IMG/VR virus record: IMGVR_UViG_2811995040_000001
Location: 13,275-77,274 of that record
From: a virus
Taxonomy: Duplodnaviria > Caudoviricetes
Reading direction: 5' to 3' (one strand)
Length of the DNA stretch: 64,000 bases
How positions within the stretch are numbered: the stretch's first letter is position 1; each line of letters begins with the position of its first letter. Positions 5,839 through 54,092 of this stretch are shown piece after piece. Both the position numbers and the translations under genes were made by a program. The notes under the pieces were generated by a model. That model had not been told where the DNA came from. It made no database searches and worked only from the letters and a program-made list of their open reading frames with translations.

Positions 5839-5968
5839 AGTGAATCTCCGGGTTAGCTAAGCACTCGCTCTCAAACGTATTATCAAGCTGATACGCTTTT
5901 TGAAAGGAGGGAGTGGTATTTTTTCAACATCACGAAAGCTCGTCCCGGAGCAGAGTATTTTCAGTCAT

Positions 5969-7259
5969 CAGAATGCCTCCTTTCCTCCCCGGCCTGAAGG
6001 CCGGGGAGGAAAGGAGGCGGTTTTCCGGCTAACTGTCTTTTGCATAATCACATTTTCCTCTTTAATATGTGAGGCTATGAAACGCGCATATAAATACCGG
6101 TTTTACCCCACGGCTGAGCAGGCTGAGCTTTTAGCTCAGACGTTCGGTTGTGTGCGTTTCGTCTACAACTCCATCCTCCGCTGGCGTACCGATGCATACT
6201 ACGAGCGAAAGGAAAAGATCGGTTACCTACAGGCCAACGCTCGCCTTACGGCGCTGAAAAAGGAGCCGGAATTTGCCTGGCTTAACGACGTTTCCTGCGT
6301 TCCCCTCCAGCAGTCTTTGCGCCACCAACAAACCGCCTTTGCTAACTTCTTCGCCGGACGGGCTGCATATCCGACATTCAAAAGCAAACGGCACAGGCAG
6401 GCGGCTGAGTTCACTGCGAGCGCGTTTAAATACCGCGACGGCAAGCTGTACATGGCAAAGAACAAAATCCCCTTAGACGTGCGCTGGAGTCGTCCGCTGC
6501 CGTCCGTGCCGTCTACCGTCACCATTTCTAAAGATGCCGCAGGGCGGTACTTTGTTTCGTGCCTTTGCGAATTTGAACCCGCATCACTGCCGATCACCTC
6601 TTCAATGGTCGGCATTGATGTTGGTTTAAAAGATTTGTTCGTCACCGATACCGGATTCAGGTCCGGCAATCCCCGCCATACCGCTAAATACGCGGCTCGC
6701 CTGGCACTACTCCAGCGCCGGTTAAGCAAAAAGGCCAAAGGCTCAAAGAACCGCGCCAAAGCCCGCTTAAAGGTGGCCCGACTCCACGCGAAAACTGCTG
6801 ATTGCCGACTGGATGCCCTGCACAAGGCATCCCGCAAACTGATTAACGATAACCAAGTTGTTTGCGTCGAATCCCTGAAAGTGAAGAACATGCTCCGCAA
6901 CCCGTCGCTATCCAAAGCGATAGCAGACGCGAGCTGGGGCGAACTTGTGCGCCAGCTCCAGTACAAAGGCGAATGGGCCGGGCGGTCAGTAGTCGCCATT
7001 GACCAGTTTTTCCCGTCCTCAAAACGCTGTAGCTGTTGCGGTTTCACCATGAAAAAAATGCCTCTTGATGTTCGTAAATGGCAGTGCCCTGAGTGCGGAA
7101 CTGACCACGACAGAGACGTTAACGCGGCACGTAATATCAAAGCTGCCGGGCTGGCAGTGTTAGCCCACGGAGAGCCTGTAAATCCTGAATCGCTCAAAGC
7201 GGCTTAGGTTCGGCTCGTTGAAGTGGGAATCCCCGTCCTTCAGGGCGGGGAGCTGTCAA
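5969..7259 (+). mobile_element. IS200/IS605-family element, tnpB only (IS1341-like)
   Basis: TCAT|CAGAATGCCTCC left end with a 20-bp hairpin (5975-6018); right-end hairpin CCCCGTCCTTCAGGGCGGGG ending in TCAA at 7256-7259; no tnpA. Confidence 0.85.
6077..7207 (+). CDS. tnpB: TnpB RNA-guided nuclease
   Basis: MKRAYKYRFYPT start; RuvC D/E/D motifs GIDVG, VESL, DRDVNAA; CxxC..CxxC zinc ribbon. Confidence 0.92.
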   Translation: MKRAYKYRFYPTAEQAELLAQTFGCVRFVYNSILRWRTDAYYERKEKIGYLQANARLTALKKEPEFAWLNDVSCVPLQQSLRHQQTAFANFFAGRAAYPTFKSKRHRQAAEFTASAFKYRDGKLYMAKNKIPLDVRWSRPLPSVPSTVTISKDAAGRYFVSCLCEFEPASLPITSSMVGIDVGLKDLFVTDTGFRSGNPRHTAKYAARLALLQRRLSKKAKGSKNRAKARLKVARLHAKTADCRLDALHKASRKLINDNQVVCVESLKVKNMLRNPSLSKAIADASWGELVRQLQYKGEWAGRSVVAIDQFFPSSKRCSCCGFTMKKMPLDVRKWQCPECGTDHDRDVNAARNIKAAGLAVLAHGEPVNPESLKAA

Positions 7260-7561
7260 TCAGGCGCCAGCGGATTGGCCTGGCAACGGTTGGGCATCGA
7301 AGCGGGTTCACTTTTGCGCATCCATGGGCTTCGGTACCCGACCCGCTCCCTTATACCTGTATTTTTCCGCAGATACGTCAGCCCCCACCACACGGTGGGT
7401 TATTTCAAAACATAATGACAGAATGGACACTTTCTGAAAGAAACATGCCAGATAATATGATGAATTGTGATCGCTATTGCAATAGCAACATATGGAACTT
7501 ACTTTTAAGGCGTTAAAAAGCCAGAGCGTTTTTCCATAACAGATGTTGATAAAGGATTTTA

Positions 7562-9910
7562 ATGAATATATCATCAAGCAGAATTAATTTTTCCACCATT
7601 CCCTTCCAGGTTAAAAAATTAGTTAAAACTATCCATGAGCGTACGAAAAACCGGTTCTCCTCAGAAATAACCAGCGTTAAAAACACACCTATATCTTTAA
7701 ATGAAAAATTTAAAATAGGAAAGGACTCACCGATTGAATTCGCGTTACCACAAAAAATAAAAAAATTCTTTCATCCGAAAGATAAAAACACCTTAAACAA
7801 AACATTGATTACTGTTAAAAATATTACTGACACAAATAACACCTGTAAGAAAAATATTTCAGCGGAAGATGCCTCAAAAATTACTACAGCATTCATGCAT
7901 AAGAATATTGCAAATCAATCACGTGATTATAATTACAGAGTGACAGGTGCGGCCCCACTCCCCGGTGGAGTCTCTGTATCAGCCAATAACAGGCCAACGG
8001 TTTCTGAAGCCAGAACACCACCAGTATCACCCTCCCTCTCACTTCAGGCTACGTCTTCCCCGTCATCACCTGCCGAATGGGCTAAGAAACTCACGGATGC
8101 AGTTTTACGACAGAAAGCCGGAGAAACTCTCTCGACCACAGAACTTGATTTTTCAGGCGCAGATTTCCGTTACATTTTATTCAGTGAAATATTGCCTTCC
8201 AGCTTCATGGAGCGAGACGGCGATATCCTTAAGGGGTTCAACTTTTCAAATTCAAATTTCGCTCATTCTGATATATCTGATTTACATTTTGACGAATGCC
8301 GGTTCACTTATTCGACACTGCGTGGTGCAATCTGCAGCAATACGAAATTTAGTCATTCAGATATGAATAATGCGTTTTTACAGTATTCAGTTTTTACACA
8401 ACAACAGCCCTCTTTTATTAATACAACATTAAAAAATACGTGTATGCATCACAAAGCAAACCTCTCTGGCGTTATTTTAAATGAACCGGATAATTCATCA
8501 CCTCCGTCAAAATCAGGGGGCGGAGATTTTATTCGTTTAGGTGATATCTGGATACAAATGCCACTCCTTTGGACTGAGAACGCTGTGGATGGATTTTTAA
8601 ATCATGAACACAATGATGGTAAAAGTATTCTGATGACCATTGACAGCCTGCCCGATAAATACAGTCAGGAAAAAGTCCGGGCAATGGAAGACCTGGTTAA
8701 GTCATTGAGGAGTGGCTGCTTATCAGAGGCACATATCCGGCCAGTTGAAAGTTCGCTGGTAAGCGTGCTGGCCCACCCCCCCTATACGCAAAGTGTACTT
8801 ATCAGCGAGTGGCTCAGGCCTGTTAAGGAAAGTTTTTTTGCCCATCAGTGCCAGACCTATAATGACGTTCCCCTGCCAGCTCCTGACACATATCATCAGC
8901 AGCGCATACTGCCTGTGCTGCTGGATTCGTTTGACAGGAACAGCGCCGCCATGACCACTCACAGCGGATTCTTTAATCAGGTGATTGTACACTGTATGAC
9001 AGGCGTGGACTGCACTGATGACATCCGCCAGAAAGCCGCGGCTCTTTATGAGCGGTATCTTGCTCACCCGTTGGTGTCTCCACACATCAATAATGGGCTG
9101 TTCGGCGATTATGACGGCAGCCCGGACTGGACAACCAGCGCTGCAGATAATTTCCTGCTGCTCTCCTCCCGAGCTTCTGACACGGCGATGATGCTCTCCG
9201 CTGACACACTGTCAACGATGTTAAACCCCAAACCTGACACTGCATGGGACCGCTTTTACCTGCTGAGAGGGGGAGAGAACGTCTCCACCGCGCAAATCTC
9301 TCCGGAAGAATTATTCCGTCATGACTTTCCGGTGTTTCACACCGCATTTAATCAGCAGGCCCAACAGCGACGCTTTGGGCAACTGATTGATACCATCCTA
9401 AGCTCTGAAGAACACAGGGAGCTTAACCGGCAGTTTATTGCCGCCACGAAACAGAAATATTCCGACGTGAAGTTTGTTGATGCCCCTTCACAGTCACGTC
9501 TGAACGCTGTTTTTGAATCCCTGCTTCCTGAAGGTAAACTCAGCCCGCCACACTACCAGCATATCCTCAATGCTTATCACCTGACTGATGCCACCCCACA
9601 GAAACAGGCGGAAACCCTGTTCTGTCTCAGTACCGCATTCGCACGCTATTCCTCCAGCGCTATTTTCGGCACTGAACACGATTCTCCGACTATCCTGAGA
9701 GGCTATGCGGAGGCGCTGATGCAGAAAGCGTATGAACTGTCTCCGGAAATATTCCCGTCCGTAGACAAGCTTACCGACTGGTCCAACCGTTTTCACGGCC
9801 TCCATAATGCCTTTACCTGTACCAGCGTTGTGGCGTATGATATGCAACGTCATGCCAGAGAACACTTCCCGGGTGTTCTGTCATCCATCCTGCCACTGGC
9901 CTGGGCGTAA
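7562..9910 (+). CDS. sopA: SopA HECT-like E3 ubiquitin ligase T3SS effector (prophage-borne)
   Basis: 782 aa, pentapeptide-repeat region, catalytic AFTCTS and C-terminal SSILPLAWA as in recalled SopA. Confidence 0.9.
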
Positions 9911-9911
9911 T

Positions 9912-10016
9912 TTGACACTCCCCTCCCTAAAGGAAGGGGATTCTTGGTTAGTTAGAAGATCAAGGGCACGCCTTATATCCCCGACCCAAAAGGACGGGGT
10001 TTTACGGCGCTCTCGG
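9912..10016 (-). mobile_element. Miniature IS605-type element, second family, 105 bp
   Basis: Minus strand TTAT|CCGAGAGCGCCGTAAAACCCCGTCCTT hairpin left end, then GAATCCCCTTCCTTTAGGGAGGGGAGTGTCAA right end. Confidence 0.7.
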
Positions 10017-10084
10017 ATAAGCCTTGCTAAAAAGCCCATCTGGGTGGGCTTTAGTTATAATCTACCCTCCCGCCAACACGCCCA

Positions 10085-10205
10085 GCGGGTTAAGTACGGG
10101 TGTATTGAAGTACCTGTTACATCAGAGGTGGCGGGGATTTCTCGCTGCCGGGTCTCTTACTCCTCAGACTCGTAAGCCGTGAAGACAGCAGCCTCCGCCT
10201 GTCCG
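10085..10205 (-). pseudogene. hok/gef 3' remnant plus UTR (copy 2)
   Basis: ..AAVFTAYESEE* with stop at 10157-10159. Confidence 0.7.
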
Positions 10206-10244
10206 TACAAAGTTCATATTCATCTGTTAATGTTTAATCAGATT

Positions 10245-10817
10245 CTATCTTAAGGTAAAACAATCACGTTCGGTATTAAAAAAACATTCGCTCTTTCTAA
10301 CTATCATATCACCACGGATAGGCTCCTGACTCAAAGGGTGTTTTAACTCCAGGGACAGTACGTCGAAGAATGCCTCTTTATCAAATAAGTGACAAACATC
10401 TGACCGTGATGATGCTTTAACAAAAATACCGTTTTTTGGAATAGCCATCGTTATCGGACATATTAAATATTTTTCAGAACATGCAAAACTTCCTGATTCA
10501 ACCTGAAAATTACATAAATCAATCTTCCATGAAATTTTTAATTCGTTTGCCAGCTTTTTTGCATTGCCCTCCCTTGCTTGATAAGTAAGAGGATGCAACC
10601 CCGGTTCATACAACGGAACCACGTCAAATAAGCCTTTATCGGGCCGATGACATACCTGGTATAGCGCATCACATAGTTGCACCTGAATTTCAGTCGGCCC
10701 AGTCCCGCCATCAGGAGGTCTGGCTGCATTACGTATACTGTCGAGCATATCCAAAGGATATGTTTCTATGTACCCATCAAAGGTATGTAAACGTACATTT
10801 GGAAAACTTAATGGCAT
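10245..10817 (-). CDS. NleG-like U-box E3 ligase effector, copy 2
   Basis: MPLSF N-terminus; CPITMAIPKNGIFVK..SDVCHLFD..HPLSQEPI. Confidence 0.85.
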   Translation of the reverse strand: MPLSFPNVRLHTFDGYIETYPLDMLDSIRNAARPPDGGTGPTEIQVQLCDALYQVCHRPDKGLFDVVPLYEPGLHPLTYQAREGNAKKLANELKISWKIDLCNFQVESGSFACSEKYLICPITMAIPKNGIFVKASSRSDVCHLFDKEAFFDVLSLELKHPLSQEPIRGDMIVRKSECFFNTERDCFTLR

Positions 10818-11089
10818 ATTTTATTTCCTTTTATATTATTAATATCAAAAATACAGCAGCTATTAATTTCTTTTAAAAAGATACCTCACATCATCTCACT
10901 AGCATCCATCCAGTGCTGATACTTAAATATCCTCAAGGTTTTAATATCTTTAATGCAACGCTTTCAATCATATTTAGGACACATTCCATTTAGTCTGCTG
11001 ATTATTCACACATAGTTTCATACGGGACTCAGCTCCTCCTTCCTGGTATTCCATTTTCATGCAGATTTCACTTCCCGGTAATTTCCCCA

Positions 11090-11136
11090 TTGACTGCTCC
11101 CCGCCCTGAAGGACAGGGATTCCCGGAGGCATTTTG
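11090..11136 (-). mobile_element. 47-bp IS605-derived micro-element (12-nt left end plus right-end hairpin)
   Basis: Minus strand TCAT|CAAAATGCCTCC-GGGAATCCCTGTCCTTCAGGGCGGGGAGCAGTCAA; both parts match the ends of 5969-7259. Confidence 0.8.
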
Positions 11137-12560: not shown

Positions 12561-12595
12561 ACTGACCTCCTTATGTGTCCTGCTTGTGATTTAAT

Positions 12596-13728
<1,133 letters not shown>

Positions 13729-13729
13729 T

Positions 13730-13912
13730 ATGAAGACCATCATTTACGATTACAGCTCTGAATTTCCTGACTGTGGCGTACTGGCAGACCTCCCTGACGG
13801 GGAAGGGGTTTTCTTTAATACATTTGATGACTTTATGTCGTTTGTGGATGATGAGTTTTCTGATGTGCAGCTCGTTCCCCTGTTTGAGGAGGGCGAAAAT
13901 GAGTACATCTGA
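13730..13912 (+). CDS. Small acidic hypothetical protein
   Basis: 60 aa, starts 1 bp after the recombinase stop and overlaps the rep start. Confidence 0.5.
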   Translation: MKTIIYDYSSEFPDCGVLADLPDGEGVFFNTFDDFMSFVDDEFSDVQLVPLFEEGENEYI

Positions 13913-15044
13913 CAACATGGTGCGTGTTGATGCGCTGTCTTTCTCTTTCAGCATTTCATATATGCGTGACCTTTCGAAATGGTATGAGTTTAGCAGAGCA
14001 TCAGGCTATAACGGTGTTCTCCCTGAATTTCCGGTTCCGCCCTCACAGACTGATTTCAGAACCGGATTAACCCTGTCATCAGATGTGTATCAGCGTTTAC
14101 TGGATGATTACTATCAGGAGTATTACAACGCGGTTTACTCGCGCATTTTCCTTTTTTTCGACCGAATTTTCGGACTGTCAGTGGGACCGGTGCGTTCCCG
14201 TGGTATGCAGGGCTATACCCATTCCTGCCGTCTGTTTTCATCGGATGGTCAGCATGAATGCGGCTGGCTGATGTTTGGTGGGGCTAATCAGAAAGATACC
14301 GCGCATGTGCAGCTCTCCGGCGTGGGGTGTCGTCATCTGTTTATGAACATCACGCCGTATCTTCTCTGGAATACGCTTAAGGGTCTGGGGGTGACGCGCC
14401 TGTCACGTGTTGACCTGTGTTTTGATGACTTTACCGGAAATTTCGGTACAGCCTATGCACTGACGGCTTACAAGGACAGGGCTTTTCTCACGGGTAAAGG
14501 TGGTCGTGTTCAGGAACTTGATGTTCGCAGGCCTCTGGCGGGTGAGTCACTCAAAGGTGACACGGTATACATTGGAAAACGTAAATCCTGTATTTACTGG
14601 CGAATTTACGATAAGGCTCTTGAACAAAAAATTGAAGGTGTTTCCTGGTATCGCTCAGAAGTGGAATTAAAAAAAGTCACTGTTGATGTACTTTCTGATG
14701 TTGACGCATTTTTTGCGGGTATTTGTGATTATTCTGCCTCTCTGTTGAGTGGTCATATTGAGCATATACGCAAGCTCCCGCGCGATGAACGCCAGAAAAT
14801 GAAAAACCTCCTGCCCTGCCTTGAATTACTGGGAAGGATAAAGCGAGTCCGTCGCCAGTTCGGAAAAATAGCGTCTGAGGTGCTGGATATTTTCGATGGT
14901 GATACTGGTGCAGTCTTCGGTCTGCTTGCCAGTGATGAGGCAATAAATAAATTTAATCTGGGTGAATACCAGCGTTCTCTTAAACAGGGTGGCGTGATAT
15001 TCAGCCATTCCCGACAGAAACAACGTTTATATGGAGTAAATTAA
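13899..15044 (+). CDS. Rolling-circle replication initiator (Rep_trans / RstA-like)
   Basis: LSRVDLCFDD, TVYIGKRKS..WRIYDKALEQ and WYRSEVELK; GAGGAGG RBS upstream of 13899. Confidence 0.88.
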   Translation: MSTSDNMVRVDALSFSFSISYMRDLSKWYEFSRASGYNGVLPEFPVPPSQTDFRTGLTLSSDVYQRLLDDYYQEYYNAVYSRIFLFFDRIFGLSVGPVRSRGMQGYTHSCRLFSSDGQHECGWLMFGGANQKDTAHVQLSGVGCRHLFMNITPYLLWNTLKGLGVTRLSRVDLCFDDFTGNFGTAYALTAYKDRAFLTGKGGRVQELDVRRPLAGESLKGDTVYIGKRKSCIYWRIYDKALEQKIEGVSWYRSEVELKKVTVDVLSDVDAFFAGICDYSASLLSGHIEHIRKLPRDERQKMKNLLPCLELLGRIKRVRRQFGKIASEVLDIFDGDTGAVFGLLASDEAINKFNLGEYQRSLKQGGVIFSHSRQKQRLYGVN

Positions 15045-15046
15045 TT

Positions 15047-15367
15047 ATGCAGACCGGTTATATTTTTCGTGGTATTTGCCTGGCAACCAGGGTGAAAGAA
15101 AGTTCTTTTGACGGAAAAGTCAACACCAGATATTTCCTGGGGGTAATGTCATCCGTTCGCAATGAATATGGTGTTGAAGACCAGAAAACTCAGGAATTCA
15201 GAATTCCAAACAGCAATGATTTCACTCAGGTGCTGAATTATTATAATTCGCTGAAAGGAAAAATGGTGGAGGTTTCCTTTGAGAACCGTGCTTATACGCT
15301 TGATGATGGTCGTAAAGGCTCTAATATCTTTGTGACAGGTGTTATTGAGGTTAAGCCGGAAAAATAA
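15047..15367 (+). CDS. ssDNA-binding protein (pV/RstB-like)
   Basis: 106 aa directly after rep; position and beta-rich composition. Confidence 0.6.
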   Translation: MQTGYIFRGICLATRVKESSFDGKVNTRYFLGVMSSVRNEYGVEDQKTQEFRIPNSNDFTQVLNYYNSLKGKMVEVSFENRAYTLDDGRKGSNIFVTGVIEVKPEK

Positions 15368-15391
15368 CATCTACACAACAGGATATTCTCT

Positions 15392-15616
15392 ATGACCGAA
15401 ATTAATAATGTCACAGGTAATATATGTGATGTAGTAACGGGTGTTTGCCATTCGGTAATCTTATCTATAAATTCAGTGCCTGTTACATTTGCTTCGTCTG
15501 GTACTGATTTTAAAGTATCTGCTGGTTATTTTGCTGCTGCCTTTATTCCTACGCTTAGTTTATGGCTGGTTGCAAAATCATCAGGGATAATACTGGAGTT
15601 TATACGCAGGTTATAA
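15392..15616 (+). CDS. Minor coat protein (pVII/pIX-like)
   Basis: 74 aa with a C-terminal TM helix, between ssb and the major coat gene. Confidence 0.55.
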   Translation: MTEINNVTGNICDVVTGVCHSVILSINSVPVTFASSGTDFKVSAGYFAAAFIPTLSLWLVAKSSGIILEFIRRL

Positions 15617-15651
15617 ACTCTTTCATTAAATATCATTTGAAAGGTTATCAT

Positions 15652-15876
15652 ATGTATAAATCAATATCTTCTCGCGTAATTATTCTATTAGCTTTTATTC
15701 TCTCTGCTATTTCTGTTCCCGCAATGGCTGCAGGACCGGATTTTACGTCACTGACTGATGCCGTAGATTTTTCTACTGTACAGACAGCTATTCTTGCTAT
15801 TGCTGCATTAGTTGCTGGCGTTTATGTCCTGATTTCTGGTGTTAAGAAAGTACTGAGTGCTATCAAATCTGCATAA
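15652..15876 (+). CDS. Major coat protein pVIII
   Basis: Signal peptide ending AMA, acidic N-terminus, TM helix and basic tail VKKVLSAIKSA; terminator follows at 15889-15918. Confidence 0.85.
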   Translation: MYKSISSRVIILLAFILSAISVPAMAAGPDFTSLTDAVDFSTVQTAILAIAALVAGVYVLISGVKKVLSAIKSA

Positions 15877-15918
15877 TTTATTCTGAATAAGGAGGGGGAG
15901 TTCTGCTCCCCTTTATTT

Positions 15919-15999
15919 ATGGCTGAACTGTGGAATATTGTCTTTTTTGCATGGGGTCTGTTATGCGCCTGGATCGTGGTTCGTGGTTTCGACGACTGA
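15919..15999 (+). CDS. 26-aa hydrophobic minor coat-like protein (not in the ORF track)
   Basis: MAELWNIVFFAWGLLCAWIVVRGFDD*. Confidence 0.5.
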   Translation: MAELWNIVFFAWGLLCAWIVVRGFDD

Positions 16000-17645
16000 C
16001 GGTTTATTATCTTTGCTTCTGCGTCGTTTTCGTATCTTTTCCGCGCAGAACTGAAGCTGCGTTTCCCCTTGCTATCCCTATAGTGATGGCGGCTGTACCT
16101 GCCGGAACGACTTCACTTTCTGCCATCAGTGGTGTGACACTGAGTTATATTGCTTATACCCTGGGGATTACTGCTGTGGCCACGACGGCAGCAGGTGTTG
16201 CTCTTGAATATAATGGCAGAACGTCATCCAGCACAGGAGCAAATCTTCGTCAGGATGGTATTCCTGTAGCGGGTTCTACGATGATCTCGATGGGCGTGAC
16301 TAAGCCTTCTGACTGGGATATGCCTTACCATGGTGGGCGTCTGGTTAATGTGACGTCATCTTCTCAAATGGCATCAATTGCGCCGGGTCTTATAAATTCA
16401 CCCTCGTTATATTCTCCACCGTCATTACTTAATCCTGTCCCTGTTTATATTCCACCTAAGCCAGTTATCAGTTATCCGTCTGCGCCGTCAGGGGTTAAGT
16501 TTACGTCCTATCCGGGAGGTGTTTATAATATTAAATCAAACATAATTTCCGATGATATTAATCCGGATAATCTGAATTATATTTCTGCATCAGATATCAG
16601 TGAACTTGCCAGTTTTATTCTTGCCAATAATAAAACAAAAACAGACTATGCCTTTGAACGTATCCGTGGTGGTTATAGTGCATTATATAATGGTGGCAGA
16701 ATAAACGACCACGGTGTTTATCGTGATGGTTATGCCTGCGGTGATTTACTTCCACCTCTTGATTATCCCCAGATAATCAGCACTGTTACATCTTCTTCTC
16801 AGACCGGGCGGTATATGATTGACGGCTCTGTTAAAACACTGCCAGCGTTATCGCATATTCAGATTTATGTACCTGCTGTGAGTTATAGCTGTTTTCTTCC
16901 TCAGTCTGTTGGAGGGTTAACCAGTATCAGTAACTCTGTTGGTTCAACTACTATTGCTGATATTACTGTTTCCCCTAATCCGTCATTCATTGATATTTCC
17001 GGCAGTAATCAGGATGTAGACAATCCCCAGCTTTTACCTCCTCTGGGTCAGGTTGCTGGTATTCAGGAGGATTTTAAATATCGTTATTTAACACCTGCTC
17101 AGATAGCTTCCTTTATCAATACAGCATGGCAGCAGGCATCGGCAAGGGAAGGTTATAAAGGAATTCCTTATTCATCTTCCATTGCTGCCACGCCTCAGCT
17201 TATTAAAGATATTATGGATGCGCGGGGAATGTCTTTGTCTCTGTCCTCACTCTTTGAGCCTGTAGGTAAAGCCGGGTACTGGGATATTCCGGTTTATAAC
17301 ATCACTTTAAATCAGTATGTCAGCATTACTAATATTGAAGCCGATCCGGTTATTGATTTTGGCCCGAACCCGGGGGTTACGGCTCCCGAACTGGCACCTT
17401 CTGCGGGTTTCGAAAAACCTCTGGGACCGATTTTTAATATCATGCCTTTTATGAGGGAACTAAAACTCCCGCATAAAGCGTCTTTCTGTCCGACTTTTAG
17501 CTATGACATTCCGCTAATAAACATCAGCGGGAAATTTGATGCCCACTGCCGCATATTATCTCCCCTGACACCCCTTATCTCGCAGATTTTCGTGATTACC
17601 TGGACGCTGCTGGCGCTGTTTATCGTCCTGAGAAGGAAAGGATAA
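15963..17645 (+). CDS. pIII-like adsorption protein 1
   Basis: Signal peptide, YKGIPY, Pro-rich GPNPG..APEL linker, Cys pair and C-terminal TM; start uncertain. Confidence 0.7.
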   Translation: MRLDRGSWFRRLTVYYLCFCVVFVSFPRRTEAAFPLAIPIVMAAVPAGTTSLSAISGVTLSYIAYTLGITAVATTAAGVALEYNGRTSSSTGANLRQDGIPVAGSTMISMGVTKPSDWDMPYHGGRLVNVTSSSQMASIAPGLINSPSLYSPPSLLNPVPVYIPPKPVISYPSAPSGVKFTSYPGGVYNIKSNIISDDINPDNLNYISASDISELASFILANNKTKTDYAFERIRGGYSALYNGGRINDHGVYRDGYACGDLLPPLDYPQIISTVTSSSQTGRYMIDGSVKTLPALSHIQIYVPAVSYSCFLPQSVGGLTSISNSVGSTTIADITVSPNPSFIDISGSNQDVDNPQLLPPLGQVAGIQEDFKYRYLTPAQIASFINTAWQQASAREGYKGIPYSSSIAATPQLIKDIMDARGMSLSLSSLFEPVGKAGYWDIPVYNITLNQYVSITNIEADPVIDFGPNPGVTAPELAPSAGFEKPLGPIFNIMPFMRELKLPHKASFCPTFSYDIPLINISGKFDAHCRILSPLTPLISQIFVITWTLLALFIVLRRKG

Positions 17646-17708
17646 GATGAATTTTACTGATTCAGATGACTACTCAGAATTACGGTTATTAATGAGATTC
17701 GCCCGTAA

Positions 17709-17763
17709 CGCTCGCCACAGACAAGTGACCGAACGTAGTGAGCGAACGGTCGAGGAAGCGGAA
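17709..17763 (+). promoter_or_regulatory. Primosome assembly site (ssi/pas)-like sequence
   Basis: CGCTCGCC.CAG...GACCGA.CG.AG.GAG......CGAGGAAGCGGAA resembles the recalled ColE1-type pas. Confidence 0.55.
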
Positions 17764-17838
17764 TTTCACCGGAACTGGCAGGGGAACGCCGTACGCCCTT
17801 TTTTTTCATATGGAATAAGAAATAAGTATTGTTGCGCA

Positions 17839-19347: not shown

Positions 19348-19357
19348 GGAGTTTTAT

Positions 19358-19648
19358 ATGCATGCGATTCTGATTTCAGCCTTTAATTCTGTACTCCGTT
19401 TTCTGCTTGGTCAGGCGACGATTAAATCCGTTATATTTATTGTGCTGACCTACCTTATATCAGAGATTATTTCCGTGGTTAATAAGCTCTTGCCGGACTC
19501 CACTAATCTGATTGCATTATTTAATTCACTGCCTTCTGAAGCGTGGTATTTCATTAATCTTGCTGAACTGCCTTACGGTCTGTCACTGATATTTTCATCA
19601 CTGCTGACCCGGTTTATTTTCGGGATGATCCCGGTTGTGGGGCACTGA
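19358..19648 (+). CDS. pVI-like membrane protein
   Basis: ~96-aa hydrophobic ORF between pIII and Zot. Confidence 0.7.
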   Translation: MHAILISAFNSVLRFLLGQATIKSVIFIVLTYLISEIISVVNKLLPDSTNLIALFNSLPSEAWYFINLAELPYGLSLIFSSLLTRFIFGMIPVVGH

Positions 19649-19658
19649 CGGGGGGGTT

Positions 19659-21994: not shown

Positions 21995-22003
21995 GGTAAT
22001 TAG

Positions 22004-22103
22004 TGCAGGATTGAACGAAATCGTCGGGCAGATCCTGCATGTAAAATTGTATCTTTTGTTGTGCGTGGCATTAGTTGACGTTTGTCTGCGTGGCTACGTC
22101 AAC
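22004..22103 (+). other. Two hairpins after gene IV (packaging-signal or terminator-like)
   Basis: TGCAGGAT/ATCCTGCA and GTTGACGT/ACGTCAAC inverted repeats. Confidence 0.4.
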
Positions 22104-22405
22104 AATGATGCGAATGATTATTGATTGTACGTTTTTTTTACAGATCAGTTATTCAAAATATTTCAATTAAATAAGCAATCATTGGGATTGAGCCATGATT
22201 TTGTCAAATTCATTTTAATAAAAAGTATTTTATATTTAGTAAATTATAAATACTTTCATTATAATTTAATCACTTCAAAAAAAACGAATATATTAGCTTT
22301 ATTTTTTTGTTGATCTTTTATATTTGCGGTTTATATAGTAGCTCCAAGGCCTTATCTATACTTAGTCATTTTAATATGTTGGATCGAAGATATTTGAGGT
22401 GTGAA

Positions 22406-22951: not shown

Positions 22952-22969
22952 ATTTTTATATATGTTTTT

Positions 22970-24516: not shown

Positions 24517-24541
24517 CAGAATGCCTCCGGGGAGCAGTCAA
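24517..24541 (+). mobile_element. 25-bp IS605 scar (left-end tip fused to right-end tip)
   Basis: TTAT|CAGAATGCCTCC-GGGGAGCAGTCAA. Confidence 0.7.
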
Positions 24542-36924: not shown

Positions 36925-37189
36925 TGGCTCCCGACTGGGGACTTAATACTTTTTTCGCATCTTCTGGCCAGACGGCAATTCGTCGCTCAACCAATGCTTC
37001 CGCATACTGAACATCGAAACAGGCTACATCACCGCGGGAATAGCGATGATATGGTCCCAGAAATGTTACAGCCTTACGTTCTACGTTAACTTCCGTTGAG
37101 ACCGTGGTCCCATCTACATGGGCATTGGTTTGGTCAGTATCCGCAGTACCTTCATTTTTAACTGCGGTTTTTGGTGTCTTACCTGCCAT
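36899..37189 (-). CDS. Hypothetical head-associated protein
   Basis: 96 aa directly after the capsid gene. Confidence 0.55.
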   Translation of the reverse strand: MAGKTPKTAVKNEGTADTDQTNAHVDGTTVSTEVNVERKAVTFLGPYHRYSRGDVACFDVQYAEALVERRIAVWPEDAKKVLSPQSGASDHDTDIG

Positions 37190-45892: not shown

Positions 45893-45927
45893 CAGAATGC
45901 CTCCGGGAAACCTCGGCCAGCAGTCAC
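45893..45927 (+). mobile_element. 35-bp IS605 scar
   Basis: TCAT|CAGAATGCCTCC-GGGAAACCTCGGCCAGCAGTCAC. Confidence 0.65.
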
Positions 45928-47819: not shown

Positions 47820-47865
47820 CCGAGAGCGCCGTAAAACCCCGTCCTTCAGGGCGGGGAGCAGTCAC
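47820..47865 (+). mobile_element. 46-bp chimeric IS605 micro-element (family-2 left end plus family-1 right end)
   Basis: TTAT|CCGAGAGCGCCGTAAAACCCCGTCCTT is identical to 9990-10020 minus strand; continues CAGGGCGGGGAGCAGTCAC. Confidence 0.75.
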
Positions 47866-48608
47866 TTCAATAATTCCGTTAAAACTCCCCGCGCGTCGTA
47901 AAACTCCATTTCATAGTAATTATAATTACTACGTGCCTCATCCCTGCGCACTCCTCTCATTGAAAAACAAGCACTGATTAAAGTACCAAATGCACTAATC
48001 CTTTCCCGGGTACTGACCTGTGGTACTGGTAAGTTGGGTATTACCCCAGGATTTGATTGTGTACTCACTCGTAAATAACGGGAATTTGATGTTCCAGGCC
48101 CGTCTCTTACCTGACTTGTATTTCTGTCGTAAACAAGCTCAACTGCTTCCTGGATATTTTCAATTGGGATAGAATTTACGGCTACATACTCACTTTGCAA
48201 CCGCATCATCACTCGCTCAAAATGATTAAACTGGACACCACGTGACTCAATATAAGCGACAGACGGCGGAAGACTGTAGAAACTATTGTCTGCACGGATT
48301 CTGTATCTGTACAATCTGCCACTAAATGTTGCCCTAGAATAATATACTCGGGCTATATTATAAGTCTCATTAATATCTGAGGTAGTCGCAATATAGTTAC
48401 TGTCCCGACTACCGGCGGCACAGGAGTCACCTCTGATATGTTGCTGAAGATTTCTGTTATTACCGTGAGAACTAAATCCATCCCGAAAAATAACATCCGG
48501 AGGTCTCGAGTCCACACGATAAACAAAATCGACAGCAGATGAAAAAGGGCTATACGCAAACATAAGGTATACCCCCAGCCTTAAGAAACGAGAATAACCT
48601 GTCATCAT
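47862..48608 (-). CDS. artA: Pertussis-like ADP-ribosyltransferase A subunit (ArtA)
   Basis: VDFVYRVDSRPPDVIFRDGF, ATTS and catalytic QSEY; signal peptide. Confidence 0.88.
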   Translation of the reverse strand: MMTGYSRFLRLGVYLMFAYSPFSSAVDFVYRVDSRPPDVIFRDGFSSHGNNRNLQQHIRGDSCAAGSRDSNYIATTSDINETYNIARVYYSRATFSGRLYRYRIRADNSFYSLPPSVAYIESRGVQFNHFERVMMRLQSEYVAVNSIPIENIQEAVELVYDRNTSQVRDGPGTSNSRYLRVSTQSNPGVIPNLPVPQVSTRERISAFGTLISACFSMRGVRRDEARSNYNYYEMEFYDARGVLTELLK

Positions 48609-48633
48609 ATTTCCTTATGGTATATTATAAAAA

Positions 48634-49059
48634 TTATTTAATTATCTCTCCAAAACACCACTGATTACAGGTCCCGATAGCCACGATTTCATTTTGTGAC
48701 ACGCTTGAATCAAAGTGCGAAAATGCATTTATTCTTATATAAACAGATATTTTCTCACCTGTTGTATAAAAATATTTTACAGTATCAAAAATTTCCATGA
48801 AAGGTGATGTCTGTCCTGCATTCTTCTGATAATAGCCATTATCAGCCACCGCGCACCCAGTAACATTTGAACCACCTGATGATGCAGTGAAATATGCACA
48901 AATCCTTGGTGAGTGTAAATAAGGAGCATAAAAAACATTCGTAATTTTAACATTCTCATATTTCGTAGTGTCTTTCAGATACCAGTTATTAACCGTTGCA
49001 TAGACATTACTCGCCCCGGCCAGCATTACCAATGAAAAAGCAAAAAAAATCTTCTTCAT
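48634..49059 (-). CDS. Pertussis-like AB5 toxin B subunit (ArtB/PltB family, divergent)
   Basis: Signal peptide; F....DTVKYFYTTGEKI.VY and C-terminal Cys pair; adjacent to the A subunit. Confidence 0.8.
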   Translation of the reverse strand: MKKIFFAFSLVMLAGASNVYATVNNWYLKDTTKYENVKITNVFYAPYLHSPRICAYFTASSGGSNVTGCAVADNGYYQKNAGQTSPFMEIFDTVKYFYTTGEKISVYIRINAFSHFDSSVSQNEIVAIGTCNQWCFGEIIK

Positions 49060-49137
49060 AATATTCAACCTCGCATTTAAATTAAGCAAAAGAAATAAAA
49101 CGAACATTGCTACATTCTTTTCAATACGTGAGTACTT

Positions 49138-49175
49138 TTGACTGCTCCCCGCCCTGAATGACGGGGAGCAGTCAA
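49138..49175. repeat. 38-bp palindrome of two IS605 right ends
   Basis: TTGACTGCTCCCCG-CCCTGAATGA-CGGGGAGCAGTCAA. Confidence 0.8.
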
Positions 49176-49277: not shown

Positions 49278-49384
49278 AAAAGCCCCGCACGATGGCGAGG
49301 CTTGAATTTTTTGGTCGACGATTGAAGCTATAGCAACAATATCAGATTTACACGAAATATAGCCGTTTTAATCCAGTTTTGCAA
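49278..49384 (-). promoter_or_regulatory. Late promoter pR' with downstream terminator
   Basis: Minus strand TTGCAA-17 bp-TATATT (49384-49356); hairpin plus T-run at 49278-49303; lies downstream of Q. Confidence 0.65.
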
Positions 49385-49424
49385 TCACCATGTCGCGAGC
49401 GTTTCAACCAGCCGGTCACACTTA

Positions 49425-49613
49425 CTAAGCTGGTGATTGCAACGGCCCAGACAGTACTTCTGCTTCGCCGTTATGGCAGATATCATCACCTCTGGTCAGA
49501 TGCCAGACACCGACAATAAGCTGTCCTGATTCCAGATCGTCAACTGTGTCATTCGTATAGTATGCCACCTGCACAACACCGTTATGCTGAATCCAGTAAT
49601 ATCCTTCTTTCAT
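49425..49613 (-). CDS. Small hypothetical phage protein
   Basis: 62 aa, GAGGAGGTG RBS. Confidence 0.65.
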   Translation of the reverse strand: MKEGYYWIQHNGVVQVAYYTNDTVDDLESGQLIVGVWHLTRGDDICHNGEAEVLSGPLQSPA

Positions 49614-49780
49614 TCACACCTCCTCAAGACGAAGTAAAGAGTATAAGGCGAAGCAGAAAATGCCGCGGTGCAAGAAGCCACAATTCAAAGCCTGTTGAAT
49701 AGAAAAGTCCGCGAATGAGAGCCCCCTAAAACGCAAAAGCCCCGCACGTTGGCGAGGCTTGAATTAATCCAGTTTTGCAG

Positions 49781-50344
49781 TCACCATGTCGCGAGCGTTT
49801 CAACCAGCCGGTCACGCTTAATCACTATCCACCCCATCTGGCGAAGATCACTTAATATGCTCGATATTTTGCCGACAAATACGTCGTCAGGCAAAGGTTG
49901 GGTTTCAGCAGTTCCGTCAGGGAACACCGTTACAATGAAACGCCGTTCTTTCGGAAATGGAATCGCGGGATGGGACTGACGTGCTGGAACAGGTTGTTTC
50001 TGGGTGAAATAGCAATCCTCCAGTTTCTCGAACACCTCCCATGCCTGATCGGTTGCGAGCATCTTGGCGTGGCGGGCTGCGCCGCGTCCTGTCCAGAGAA
50101 TGAGGGAGCGGGTTTTGGGTGAAATTTGTAAACCTCTTTGAGAGGTTCGCAAATCATCAAGCTCACTACCACTTACTTTAAAGAAGTGTTTTCCTGCAAT
50201 AAAACGACATTCGTTACGTTTGAAGTTTTGTCGTATATGCTTTTCTTCCGTTTCGTATAGTTTTGCCAATAACTCAATTGTTATTACAGGGATATTAGAG
50301 TAAGTAACAATGACAAGGGATTCTACGGCGAGTTGAATGGTCAT
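49781..50344 (-). CDS. ORF6N-domain (antirepressor-like) protein preceded by an ash-like leader remnant
   Basis: PVIT.ELLA.LY.T....I..NF.RN..RF..GKH.F and LWT.RGAARHAKML.TD.AW.VFE.LED.YF; upstream AGYANPARLTT. Confidence 0.8.
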   Translation of the reverse strand: MTIQLAVESLVIVTYSNIPVITIELLAKLYETEEKHIRQNFKRNECRFIAGKHFFKVSGSELDDLRTSQRGLQISPKTRSLILWTGRGAARHAKMLATDQAWEVFEKLEDCYFTQKQPVPARQSHPAIPFPKERRFIVTVFPDGTAETQPLPDDVFVGKISSILSDLRQMGWIVIKRDRLVETLATW

Positions 50345-50611
50345 GTGATTCACCTTTACAGTTTGGTTAATCACCACCGCCGACGCCAATCGGATTGGGT
50401 GGTGAGACGTGCAGGGTTGGCGTAACCGGCTGTAAAGACCCGGCGCGGATTTCTCCGCCCCCACACGCCCCACCAATATGCGAGTGTGGCCGTGCTTAAC
50501 GCATAAAAAAACCGCTTAACGCGGTCATGCGCTTTACAGAATCCGGGACGCCAATCCCGACGCCAGATTTTGCTGGCGTTCCGGGAATATAGCCCCGAAT
50601 GCCTGTTTGTG

Positions 50612-51283: not shown

Positions 51284-51372
51284 TTATTTTCCCCTGCATT
51301 TTGGTGAATACGAATGTAATTGCGAAGGCATAACCAGTGCTACCGAAGGGACTCAATAACTTCAGGCTTCAT

Positions 51373-51419
51373 CAGAATGCCTCCGGGAAACCCCAGCCTT
51401 CAGGCCGGGGAGCAGTCAA
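51373..51419 (+). mobile_element. 47-bp IS605-derived micro-element
   Basis: TCAT|CAGAATGCCTCC-GGGAAACCCCAGCCTTCAGGCCGGGGAGCAGTCAA. Confidence 0.8.
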
Positions 51420-51466
51420 ACTGGCACCACCAGCAAGCCACTTTTTACTGCGATAAATAGCCATGC

Positions 51467-52947: not shown

Positions 52948-53039
52948 TACATGTTAGAAAGAATATTCAAGAGGTGAATAGCACTTTTTGCAAAAGCTAG
53001 CATGTTGTTTCATATCAGATTTTAAGCGGAAAAACCCGC

Positions 53040-53164
53040 CGCAGCGGGTTAAGTACGGGTGCGTTGAAGTACCTGTTACATCTGAGGTGGCGGGGATTTC
53101 TCGCTGCCGGGTCCCTTACTCCTCAGACTCGTAAGCCGTGAAGACAGCAGCCTTCGTCTGTCCG
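53040..53164 (-). pseudogene. hok/gef 3' remnant plus UTR (copy 3)
   Basis: GQTKAAVFTAYESEE*, stop at 53116-53118. Confidence 0.72.
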
Positions 53165-53203
53165 TACAAAGTTCATATTCATCTGATAATGTTTAATGAG
53201 ATA

Positions 53204-53782
53204 CTATTTTAAGGTAAAACAACCACGCTCGGTATTAAAATAACATTCGCTCTTTCTAACTATCATATCTTTACGGATAGGCTCCAGACTCAAAGGGTGT
53301 CTTAACTCCAGGGACAGTACGTCGAAGAATGCCTCTTTATCAAATAAGTGACAAACATCTGACCGTGATGATGCTTTAACAAAAATACCGTTTGTTGGAA
53401 TAGCCATCGTTATCGGACATGTTAAATATTCTTCAGAACATGCAAAACTTCCTGCATCAACCCGAAAATTACATAAATCAATCTTCCATGAAATGTTTAA
53501 TTCGTTTGCCAGCTTTTTTGCATTGCCCTCCCTTACCTGACGAGAAAGATGATCCAGCCCCGGCTCACACAACGGAACCACGTCAAATAAGCCTTTATCG
53601 GGCCGATGGCATACCTGGTATAGCACATCAGATAGTTGCACCTGAATTTCAGTCGGCCCAGTCCCGCCATCAGGAGGTCTGGCTTCATTACGTATACTGT
53701 CGAGTATATCCAAAGTATATTTCTCTATTCTCCCGTTCCCATTAACGGTATTTAAACTTAAACTTGAAAAACTTAATGGCAT
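53204..53782 (-). CDS. NleG-like U-box E3 ligase effector, copy 3
   Basis: CPITMAIPTNGIFVK..SDVCHLFD..HPLSLEPI. Confidence 0.85.
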   Translation of the reverse strand: MPLSFSSLSLNTVNGNGRIEKYTLDILDSIRNEARPPDGGTGPTEIQVQLSDVLYQVCHRPDKGLFDVVPLCEPGLDHLSRQVREGNAKKLANELNISWKIDLCNFRVDAGSFACSEEYLTCPITMAIPTNGIFVKASSRSDVCHLFDKEAFFDVLSLELRHPLSLEPIRKDMIVRKSECYFNTERGCFTLK

Positions 53783-54054
53783 ATTTCATTTCCTTTTATA
53801 TTATTAATGTCAAAAATACAGCAGCTATTAATTTCTTTTGAAAATATACCTCACATCATCTCACTATCATCCATCCAGTACTAATACTTAAATATCCTCA
53901 AGGTTTTAATATCTTTAATGCAACGCTTTCAATCATATTTAGGACACATTCCATTTAGTCTGCTCGTTATTCACACGTAGTTTCAGACGGGACTCAGCTC
54001 CTCCTTCCTGGTATTCCATTTTCATGCAGATTTCACTTCCCGGTAGTTTCCCCA

Positions 54055-54092
54055 TTGACTGCTCCCCGTCCTTCAGGACGGGGAGCAGTCAA
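54055..54092. repeat. Perfect 38-bp palindrome of two IS605 right ends
   Basis: TTGACTGCTCCCCGTCCT-TC-AGGACGGGGAGCAGTCAA. Confidence 0.85.

Follow-up and report, generated by a model that had tools for sequence, protein, structure and literature searches.

Elements of the IS200/IS605 family that carry tnpB only (the IS1341 type, with ISDra2 and IS608 as models) encode a TnpB protein with HTH, RuvC and zinc-ribbon regions, have subterminal hairpins in place of inverted terminal repeats and insert 3' of a fixed tetranucleotide without duplicating it. The right end (RE) of IS608 terminates in TCAA. REP/BIME and REPIN sequences, which belong with RAYT transposases, are short GC-rich intergenic hairpins related to the substrates of Y1 transposases. 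For lambdoid phages, modular theory proposed short boundary or linker sequences to account for mosaicism, and such common sequences at module borders could guide homologous exchange between phages. Solo LTRs offer an analogy rather than a homology: two similar ends recombine, one hybrid end is left in place, and empty, full and solo alleles coexist. Finally, the parts of PMC10055086 that concern PATEs (palindrome-associated transposable elements) describe them as non-autonomous IS200/IS605 derivatives of Haloquadratum and Geobacillus that can be mobilised in trans; they are gene-less and keep the transposon ends.

The 64,000-nucleotide stretch analysed here (the window, positions 13,275 to 77,274 of IMG/VR record IMGVR_UViG_2811995040_000001) is a Gifsy-like Salmonella provirus with SopA-like, NleG-like and type-2 ArtB/ArtA-like genes. 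We think it rather probable that its micro-elements arose by decay and recombination from a tnpB-only element that colonised a Gifsy-like Salmonella prophage repeatedly.

The parent tnpB element and its derivatives

The full element (5969–7259, plus strand, 1291 bp) adjoins with its left end (LE) the target TCAT (5965–5968, plus strand); L071, a relative without the full element, reads ...GTCATATACCAATGTTTCAT|TCAGGCG at this site. The element has an LE hairpin at 5975–6018 (fold −28.5 kcal/mol, z −7.5), an RE hairpin at about 7230–7251 and the end GTCAA, and its LE and RE have in common an imperfect 28-nt direct repeat with the hairpin inside (GGGAAWCCCCGKCCTTCAGGSCGGGGAG). Its tnpB (6077–7207, plus strand) is an intact frame of 376 codons with Pfam matches to HTH_OrfB_IS605, OrfB_IS605 and Cas12f1-like_TNB. 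The product matches the ISDra2 TnpB structures with an E value of 8e-73, and stretches that we take to be the three RuvC motifs are aligned between the two proteins. Of the 24 loci that match this interval, 19 have copies 98% identical to it (97.8–98.9%). The parent is an InsQ/TnpB-type, tnpB-only IS200/IS605-family element close to ISDra2 TnpB, and it shares with the models the regions of TnpB, the subterminal hairpins without inverted terminal repeats and, with IS608, the RE end TCAA. Both it and the pieces derived from it lie 3' of T(C/T)AT, a target by which the family differs from the models, and comparison of empty with filled sites revealed no target duplication.

The motif GGGGAGCAGTCA, allowing at most one mismatch, has 9 matches in the window against 0.13 expected, a number reached in 0 of 100 shuffles, and CAGAATGCCTCC at the same threshold has 5 against 0.32, again reached in no shuffle. 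Searched by blastn-short over all its 77,274 bases, the record has copies at the sites listed in the initial annotation and at no others; the 13 kb upstream of the window yielded none. The sequence at every site and the gene neighbours, by Pfam (SopA-like, NleG, pertussis-S1-like toxin, J/tail fibre, Rz/holin, Q, DUF1367 and P), were as it had described. The proposed origin of the pieces from an IS200/IS605-type tnpB element is borne out, as are the T(C/T)AT target and the GTCAA end that they carry, and the observation as a whole is confirmed. Unlike REP/BIME and REPIN sequences, this family clearly descends from a tnpB element and is low-copy and prophage-confined: the solo pattern defined below occurs in 4 of 401 Enterobacterales-family genomes in the sampled set, and all six RE motifs of one 4.5-Mb genome (G214) lie within 11 kb.

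Four copies had been described as LE/RE fusions. They comprise one 47-bp form and two deletion variants. The 47-bp form, or solo, consists of 12 nt of LE followed by an RE-type hairpin and end. One solo (11090–11136, minus strand) has its RE end against the 5' border of nleG cassette copy 2 and an identical context in L027, L057 and L071; the other (51373–51419, plus strand) follows TCAT between Q and the nin region and has one stem mismatch. By sequence and fold, the 25-bp copy after TTAT between the tail fibre gene and J (24517–24541, plus strand) and the 35-bp copy after TCAT at the border of KilA-N and the lysis cassette (45893–45927, plus strand) are relics without a hairpin. The former equals the 47-bp form less the 22 bp between CCGGG repeats and the latter a 12-bp deletion of it; at the latter site L115 has the intact 47-bp form and L002 reads TTAT|CAGGTTTCAG without an element. 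At the former, Gifsy-2 homology stops at 24516 and restarts at 24536, and Gifsy-2 has a 243-bp ORF instead.

A second family is represented by a 105-bp non-autonomous element (9912–10016, minus strand), which by sequence and fold has LE and RE hairpins, is flanked by TTAT and lies 1 nt after the SopA-like stop codon. It fits the PATEs in lacking genes and keeping both ends. The 3' end of a full-length tnpB parent of this family is present in L193, and among loci the mini-element has one left flank and two different right flanks.

Solo formation in place and collinear sites

Relatives show one site in three states: 6 alleles are empty, 7 solo (47 bp) and 8 full (1291 bp), and flanks of 200 bp to either side are at least 98% identical. 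The 47-bp form has a single hairpin, whereas an LE and an RE together normally supply two. The solo at the L019 site has the CCCCGCCC RE variant in common with the full copy of L070, and at the L002 site the TTTCCT variant of LE found in the local full copy is kept in the solo. Since the 47-bp form thus shares the variants peculiar to its site with the full copy there, it is a solo hairpin made in place: LE × RE recombination shrinks the 1291-bp element to a single-hairpin solo, much as solo LTRs form. This sets it apart from the PATEs: its one hairpin is hybrid, at no fewer than two sites it was made in place from a full copy, and its own mobility is putative. In contrast to solo LTRs, the repeat here is only ~28 nt and palindromic, which would make inverted recombination possible as well.

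Several copies, as originally proposed, lie exactly at homology breaks or moron borders, but three sites do not bear out the claim that the elements mark module junctions. Element-free relatives are collinear at a head-gene site, at a AAGCCCTTTCAT|ACATTCC site and at ybhB of E. coli. The first is an empty TCAT in the window (36595–36598, plus strand), whose reverse complement ATGA is the stop/start overlap of two head genes (head completion protein), and L074, L024 and L048 hold a 47-bp solo there. Such collinear flanks would be expected of inert relics, that is, of insertions into those few intergenic T(C/T)AT sites that tolerate them, which then decayed and never promoted rearrangements; the overlap with module borders would then follow because morons and insertion sequences both survive only between genes. 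The low copy number fits this account too, as does the modest size of an enrichment of homology ends near elements, which in itself speaks for recombination between copies: against SEN34, Gifsy-1, Gifsy-2 and SPN3UB, 4 of 43 ends fall no more than 10 bp from an element and 7 of 43 no more than 50 bp, a count that rests on these four reference phages only. Homology in lambdoid phages breaks at most gene boundaries, so that 4 of 43 carries little weight when set against a null of gene-boundary breaks, and most comparison loci were retrieved with the motif itself and are thus biased towards copies. We nevertheless hold inert relics to be a rather unlikely full explanation, for insertion and simple decay cannot yield several of the structures described next.

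Palindromes, chimera and cassette borders

Two copies are RE/RE palindromes. The first (49138–49175; fold −19.2 kcal/mol, z −9.2) adjoins the toxin cassette with its left half and conserved backbone with its right half; SEN34 homology begins at 49175, and the TCAT of the SEN34 holin start falls exactly there. The second (54055–54092; −22.1 kcal/mol, z −9.7) lies between nleG cassette copy 3 and P, with SEN34 homology from 54085; SEN34 reads TTAT|CATGATC (the ATGA overlap of the P stop and the next start). The copy at 47820–47865 (plus strand) is, by sequence and by comparison with relatives, a chimera of a family-2 LE with a family-1 RE hairpin and end (GTCAC), equivalent to the loss of 113 bp between a family-2 LE and a family-1 solo that lie next to each other and both persist in relatives. 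In L101, the site that corresponds to 45893 holds an inverted full element whose LE hairpin is fused to a forward RE end. Insertion and simple decay can give neither this structure nor the palindromes and the chimera.

The cassettes tell a similar story. The toxin cassette (47862–49107, minus strand; ArtB-like 48634–49107, ArtA-like 47862–48608; Pfam Pertussis_S1) has element ends at both borders, and its order is type 2 by comparison with the gene orders given in the relevant part of PMC9732031. Across loci the same cassette is joined through the element to three different left contexts, which inert relics do not account for, and one left flank meets three right flanks by a 15-nt count, which we read as two distinct contexts. 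Profile matches and copy comparison define nleG cassette copy 2 (10045–11089, minus strand; leader, NleG 10245–10817, terminator), bracketed by the 11090 solo and the 9912 family-2 element in identical orientation, and copy 3 (53033–54054, minus strand). Homology between the two copies enters the hairpin and then splits, into LE beside copy 2 and inverted RE beside copy 3. Three RE-side flanks are ancestral, with TCAT or TTAT exactly at the junction in element-free SEN34 (49175 and 54092) and L002 (45927), while the LE side has been replaced; this, too, argues against inert relics.

Judged from sequence, crossovers between copies within the hairpin seem to have produced the RE/RE palindromes, the chimera and the flank swaps. 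Because the repeat is short, dispersed and palindromic, copies could cross over in either orientation. Direct crossovers would give normal-looking solos with reassorted flanks, inverted ones RE/RE palindromes and those between families chimeras, and slippage over the hairpin would give the 25- and 35-bp relics. Crossovers of this kind may be how the nleG cassettes and the type-2 artB-artA cassette came to lie next to backbone genes, and element ends would coincide with moron borders for that reason. Where lambdoid linkers are conserved phage sequence, the common sequence here is an inserted transposon end. Candidate agents are host or phage recombination, template switching, TnpA and repair of TnpB cuts.

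Several results count against crossing over. The reciprocal LE/LE palindromes that it predicts are found in no stretch of viral_contigs, which also favours inert relics, and RE/RE palindromes elsewhere amount to four stretches, all homologues of the 49138 palindrome in close relatives. Beside the 51373 solo, homology to SEN34, Gifsy-1 and Gifsy-2 begins at 51458, 39 bp outside the element (the SPN3UB HSP begins at 51533), and the ninG/ylcG of these phages are missing here. No RecT-like annealase was found in the three recombination-region ORFs scanned, and the colonisation of up to nine sites in one prophage, with no cognate TnpA found, counts against it as well.

A further palindrome at 23412–23451, perfect over 40 bp (−18.1 kcal/mol, z −8.3), had been called related. 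The palindrome is there, but it is of a third sequence type, linked to IS605 only by its hairpin form and GTCAA/GTTAA end. It lies 15 bp from the point where a 10.8-kb inovirus-like insert begins or ends, and its orientation is flipped in L071, as crossovers within hairpins would allow.

Candidate transposase and signals within the ends

On the model of the initial annotation, a Y1 HUH TnpA acting in trans would cut and join the minimal ends and so capture and shuffle morons; this could proceed by aberrant or one-ended peel-and-paste, for example of one copy's LE with another's RE or of RE with RE. The ends and targets are of TnpA type (T(C/T)AT, GTCAA), cassette borders match RE ends to the base, and nleG copy 2 lies composite-like on one strand between LE1-RE1 and LE2-RE2 in the same orientation. 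The section of PMC9732031 on type-2 artA likewise places an IS605-family transposase just downstream of this gene and suggests transposition. We nonetheless consider the proposal unlikely. Unlike the models, the family has no tnpA in the element, and the absence of tnpA that the annotation noted for the window extends further: no Y1 transposase occurs in the whole record or beside any family copy among the loci examined, and a cognate TnpA was found neither there nor in genomes G214 and G303. The only Y1 transposases found in these two genomes, which carry the element family, are IS200-type copies with unrelated ends and target. The two relics have no hairpin and the solos one. TnpA-made junctions and still-usable handles, and with them capture in trans, are unsupported. 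The nleG copies and L101 diverge within the hairpin, away from TnpA cleavage sites. According to the literature, peel-and-paste excises elements seamlessly and would therefore leave no LE-RE scar. Recombination in the hairpin repeat explains the junctions better than TnpA chemistry.

The ends also differ from those of the models in doubling as an opposite-strand stop codon and ribosome-binding site for neighbours. The target TCAT is the reverse complement of ATGA, and the reverse-complemented element starts T-TGA and finishes GGAGG-N7 ahead of the target ATG. Inserted at a stop/start overlap or a start codon, it would end the upstream gene with a stop and provide a ribosome-binding site for the downstream one, which would explain its persistence in tightly packed operons. 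The hairpins might even be selected as mRNA stabilisers, processing sites or insulators on the opposite strand, forming with the built-in stop and Shine-Dalgarno sequence a portable intercistronic cassette on which morons depend for their expression. Strong hairpins speak for this, as do the stop codons inside RE ends and the use of GGAGG-N7-ATG described below, but the palindromes have no following T run and so by sequence are no intrinsic terminators, the hairpin is gone from two copies, and LE-adjacent ATGs in the window open ORFs of only 7–38 aa, so the ribosome-binding-site feature is not visibly used there; we regard such selection as very improbable.

In 13 of 25 contexts the target ATG is the start of an ORF of 100 aa or more; among control TCAT sites the figure is 312 of 1527 (p 4.5e-4). 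The enrichment could stem simply from intergenic insertions being the only ones that survive. At six independent sites the RE-end TGA terminates an upstream ORF of 100 aa or more, and the target ATG opens a downstream one. The annotated ybhB start in E. coli LF82 adjoins LE and uses GGAGG-N7-ATG, as do the long ORFs of the 13 contexts. In the window, the stop codon of P lies inside the RE end of the 54055 palindrome, and the ArtA-like gene takes its final codon base and TGA stop from the last 4 nt of the 47820 chimera.

The element family and its insertion rule

Nine short repeats in this Salmonella prophage trace back to one identifiable transposon family. The initial annotation had described a set of micro-elements around a single full tnpB element, and motif excess, census and the sequences themselves agree with that description. 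The window spans bases 13275–77274 of an IMG/VR provirus record. Both diagnostic motifs lie far above chance in the window (9 occurrences versus 0.13 expected and 5 versus 0.32), and a blastn-short census of the whole 77,274-base record found the family solely at the full element (5969), a 105-bp element (9912), 47-bp single-hairpin forms, hereafter solos (11090 and 51373), a 25-bp copy (24517), a 35-bp copy (45893), a chimera (47820), two palindromes built from right ends (49138 and 54055) and a 40-bp palindrome of a third type (23412).

The full element (5969–7259) is 1291 bp long and carries an intact tnpB gene (6077–7207) encoding 376 residues. Its product scores above the Pfam cut-off for the OrfB_IS605, HTH and zinc-ribbon/TNB domains and matches the ISDra2 TnpB structures at E 8e-73; the aligned stretches are presumably the three RuvC motifs of ISDra2 TnpB. 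The left end (LE) contains a 21-bp hairpin (−28.5 kcal/mol, z −7.5) and the right end (RE) a 9-bp hairpin seen in the centroid structure, while the termini, CAGAATGCC... and ...GCTGTCAA, are not inverted copies of one another, so that the element lacks terminal inverted repeats. The family's ends read TCAT|CAGAATGCCTCC and GCAGTCAA. Copies at 98% identity (97.8–98.9%) are present in 19 of the 24 comparison loci matched over 5969–7259. With the IS200/IS605 family the element shares tnpB, subterminal hairpins at both ends and insertion without target-site duplication. Autonomous groups of that family also have a Y1 HUH TnpA, which this element lacks; it is a tnpB-only member of the family, consistent with the IS1341-type group, which relies on TnpA supplied in trans. 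A MITE of the terminal-inverted-repeat type would show inverted ends and a target-site duplication, whereas here the ends are not inverted and the junctions carry no duplication.

For a guide (omega) RNA encoded by the RE and the 3′ end of tnpB, Rfam gave no more than hints below threshold (RAGATH-18 at 7164–7229, 28.9 bits against a threshold of 44.9; sot0042, 17.1 bits). No Rfam family reached threshold at any micro-element, and a permissive threshold over 5900–7400 gave only chance microRNA-like matches for the hairpin.

The insertion rule can be read from occupied and empty sites. At 36598|36599 the window is empty (...CACTCAT|ACGGTATGC...), and in three relatives (L074, L024 and L048) the TCAT is immediately followed by a 47-bp copy, with no duplication. 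A second site, AAGCCCTTTCAT|ACATTCCTCCCG, is empty in 6 loci, holds the 47-bp form in 7 and the full element in 8, with 200-bp flanks at least 98% identical on each side. CAT precedes the LE in 23 of 25 contexts, 22 times as TCAT, and TTAT does so in one. The target is T(C/T)AT, with insertion 3′ of it and no duplication. Similar motifs, TTCAT and TTTAT, appear in passages of a report on Geobacillus elements (PMC10055086). Near the empty site, two adjoining blast segments against the same three relatives overlap by 81 window bases (37090–37170), which suggests a short duplication or repeat in their head region. In another relative, L071 (300–345 against window 5940–5968), the full element is absent and an additional 15 bases (ATACCAATGTTTCAT) lead up to a second TCAT (TTCAT); the window's full copy therefore occupies the upstream TCAT and lacks these 15 bases. 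Just upstream of the full copy lies an ORF (4768–5097) for the ParE-family toxin of a type II toxin-antitoxin pair.

Collapse and decay of the element

As full copies bearing the LE variant CAGAATGCCTCCGGGAAACCCCGRCC... reveal, LE and RE have in common an imperfect 28-nt direct repeat that contains the hairpin. The 47-bp form runs from the LE to some point within this repeat and then continues as RE to GTCAA. The point of exchange can be followed through sequence variants: the solo at the L019 site shares its CCCCGCCC variant with the RE of L070, a full copy at that site, and the solo at the L002 site retains the TTTCCT variant of the local LE. Because solos share variants with full copies at the same site, those at the L019 and L002 sites are products of in-place LE × RE recombination, analogous to solo LTRs, which likewise form in place by recombination between the two ends of an element. 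Five further clusters of solo sites (L024, L093, L105, L113 and L142) have no full copy among the comparison loci. There a solo may have moved by itself, as a PATE reaches new sites without a full-length intermediate; in-place collapse after insertion would leave an identical picture and could explain all five.

Shorter forms derive from the solo. The 25-bp copy at 24517 is a solo minus the 22 bp between two CCGGG repeats, and removing 12 bp from the L115 solo gives the 35-bp copy at 45893. The 47-bp form keeps one hairpin; neither shorter copy folds into any. A related family (family 2), whose full tnpB parent is present in L193, includes the 105-bp element at 9912, which retains both hairpins. 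This element is an ordinary PATE-like element: PATEs have no coding capacity and keep both LE and RE hairpins, a combination found at 9912 and not in the 47-, 35- and 25-bp forms. The family shows a clear life history: it inserts at T(C/T)AT, collapses to a solo hairpin and then decays further.

Intrinsic terminators and REP-like repeats are two other sources of short hairpins. A rho-independent terminator has a GC-rich hairpin followed by a T/U run; read from the sequence, the palindromes have no T run after them on either strand, and the solo has just TTT after its stem, on the opposite strand, which sets these hairpins apart from terminators. REP/REPIN-RAYT systems comprise many copies of an extragenic hairpin scattered over the chromosome, together with a cognate RAYT gene. 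Here, only 4 of 401 genomes sampled from the family around Citrobacter have the solo pattern; in one 4.5-Mb genome (G214) all six RE motifs lie within 11 kb, against a control count of 0; and a motif scan of genome_contigs returned 44 stretches, 9 of which were judged family members by context. The element family is low-copy and prophage-centred, set apart from REP systems on both copy number and spread, and we rejected a widespread REP-like repeat.

Cassette borders and exchanged flanks

The Salmonella phages SEN34, Gifsy-1, Gifsy-2 and SPN3UB match the replication, nin, Q and recombination regions of the window at 85–97%. An E. coli origin of the window was rejected, the tnpB element being the only E. 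coli match, at ~86%. Pfam confirmed the gene neighbours that the initial annotation had named: besides TnpB, a SopA-like protein (7562–9910), NleG (10245–10817 and 53204–53782), a pertussis-S1-like, ArtA-like A subunit (47862–48608), and tail fibre, J, KilA-N, an Rz-like protein, holin, Q, DUF1367, P and O. A 157-aa ORF precedes the A-subunit gene, and the two genes show the type 2 artB-artA order of Ojiakor et al., which passages of that study give as typical of S. bongori and the non-enterica subspecies, with an IS605-family transposase downstream of some type-2 artA genes (PMC9732031). Between the toxin cassette and Q, on the minus strand (49279–50592), isrJ, isrI, isrK and a C4 antisense RNA with its a1/b1 target score above the Rfam threshold, and an ORF6N-domain protein is encoded at 49781–50476.

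Element sequences mark the borders of two effector cassettes and one toxin cassette. Three nleG cassettes of ~1 kb align (2626–3640, 10045–11089 and 53033–54054), each made up of a 38-aa leader ORF, nleG and a terminator hairpin. Copies 2 and 3 are alike into the element hairpin and then diverge, copy 2 to LE and copy 3 to an inverted RE, which yields the palindrome at 54055. The first copy ends ...CCCCGAT|AAAATGCCAGTACC, which is not an RE end. A fourth nleG cassette copy is inserted in L071 at window position 10060.

In L101 an inverted full element occupies the site corresponding to 45893; its left border is the inverted RE, and on the other side the LE hairpin leads straight into forward ...AGCAGTCAC|CAGGTTTC, which in the window forms the relic's RE end and right flank. 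L025, L115 and L122 still have a family-2 LE and a family-1 solo side by side, and a 113-bp deletion between these two produces the chimera at 47820. At its left border the toxin cassette has three different left contexts, joined through the element. One left flank occurs with three right flanks in a 15-nt count that, on reading, comprises two distinct contexts, and the family-2 element has one left flank with two right flanks.

Element-free relatives indicate which side of these junctions was exchanged. SEN34 has the holin start TCAT exactly at window 49175 and TTAT|CATGATC, the overlap of the P stop and the next start, exactly at 54092, and L002 has TTAT|CAGGTTTCAG exactly at 45927. Since the target tetranucleotide stands where the RE meets conserved flank in these three copies, the RE sides look original and the LE sides exchanged. 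RE/RE palindromes were found in only four other contigs, all homologues of the 49138 copy, and the reciprocal LE/LE palindromes in no stretch of viral_contigs.

Homology to SEN34 begins at 49175, 51458 and 54085, and that to Gifsy-2 ends at 24516 and resumes at 24536. Overall, of 43 homology ends against SEN34, Gifsy-1, Gifsy-2 and SPN3UB, 4 fall no more than 10 bp from a copy and 7 no more than 50 bp. The comparison loci were reached through motif scans and named phages, most of them by the motif itself. Lambdoid phages break at most gene borders, so this count is weak by itself. At three sites, moreover, relatives lacking the element have collinear flanks. Copies therefore do not generally mark breaks in synteny, and these sites go against the proposal that members of the family mark module junctions.

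Two further observations concern the regions around these copies. SEN34, Gifsy-1 and Gifsy-2 have ninG and ylcG between the nin region and Q, whereas the window has neither gene there; the 174 bp left (51284–51457) hold the solo and a 10-aa ORF (MKPEVIESLR) starting at the target ATG. A 10.8-kb insert (12577–23396), not in L071, starts with an IS110-family DEDD transposase (12748–13728) and also encodes Rep_trans (13773–15044), Zot-like (19635–20759) and secretin (20714–21994) proteins, on account of which it looks like a filamentous (inovirus-like) prophage nested in the lambdoid one. CTTA is present at both its junctions, the right one 15 bp from the 40-bp palindrome (23412–23451). This palindrome has the opposite orientation in L071 (6975–7020), as TTGACATCC...GGATGTTAA versus TTAATATCC...GGATGTCAA, a flip of the whole hairpin, and may be a landmark that the nested element's IS110-type recombinase targets.

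Transposase candidates and ends that fit translation

The remark in the initial annotation that the window holds no tnpA extends to the whole 77-kb record, from which the Y1 transposase domain (PF01797) is absent. By tblastn, a search of low sensitivity for distant TnpA, no IS200 TnpA was found beside any family copy in the loci. The Y1 genes of three genomes (G214, G303 and G002) were rejected as the cognate TnpA, all being IS200 copies; in the two read, G214 and G303, the IS200 ends are TTTTT|GTCTATGG...GGATATTTATT|, unlike the element family. The micro-elements had been interpreted as scars of, or handles for, moron capture by TnpA acting in trans. Of this, the IS200/IS605 tnpB origin and the T(C/T)AT target hold up, and the failure to find a cognate TnpA and the three collinear sites count against the remainder. 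Since TnpB looks intact, it may make guided breaks beside the copies. For RecET, a candidate recombinase, the window encodes an exonuclease VIII domain protein at 59363–61807, with no RecT-like partner in the three ORFs scanned there.

The ends of the element also fit translation. On the opposite strand TCAT reads ATGA, and the element reads TTGA...GGAGGCATTCTG|ATGA. At the window's empty site this ATGA is the stop/start overlap of two head genes; insertion there leaves the upstream frame as NNT TGA and the downstream ATG 7 nt after GGAGG. Six independent sites have both an upstream ORF, at least 100 aa long, that terminates at the RE TGA and a downstream ORF that begins with the target ATG, and in the window P and the ArtA-like gene each have their stop codon within an RE end. 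By an automatic rule, an ORF of at least 100 aa opens at the target ATG in 13 of 25 contexts, two of the 25 being evident chance matches in Latescibacterota genes, compared to 312 of 1527 control TCAT sites from the same loci (p 4.5e-4). Against this, the window's own LE-adjacent ATGs open ORFs of only 7–38 aa, and survival of intergenic insertions alone could be the source of much of the enrichment. By bringing its own stop and ribosome-binding site, a transposon would be able to live inside translationally coupled operons.

It has long been asked how temperate phages gain virulence cargo and reshuffle it precisely at gene borders, and few sequence actors have been identified. We tentatively propose, at low confidence, a tnpB-only transposon with ends shaped for ATGA overlaps, the RE providing the upstream stop and the LE the downstream Shine-Dalgarno sequence, whose collapsed solos might serve as portable, orientation-independent crossover points for the assembly and exchange of virulence morons (nleG, type-2 artB-artA and sopA) in Salmonella prophages. 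TnpB-guided breaks could trigger such exchange, which would be the sequence basis for part of lambdoid mosaicism. If solos do act as crossover sites, they offer a testable, sequence-defined route of moron exchange. The literature searched yielded no description of 47-bp solo hairpins or their formation in place, of RE/RE palindromes bordering morons, or of the stop/ribosome-binding-site ends; the nearest published remark is that on type-2 artA in passages of PMC9732031.

For annotation, the 25–105 bp pieces flag former TnpB element sites overlooked by gene callers, and the built-in signals would also bear on 'intergenic' hairpins and start sites. In E. coli, the element is present in 396 of 5426 complete genomes, with 51 places on plasmids of ~97–100 kb, and in nearly all matches listed it occupies one site next to ybhB. 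In strain LF82 (L191, 759603–762297) it lies between ybhB and bioA, and the annotated ybhB start abuts the LE.
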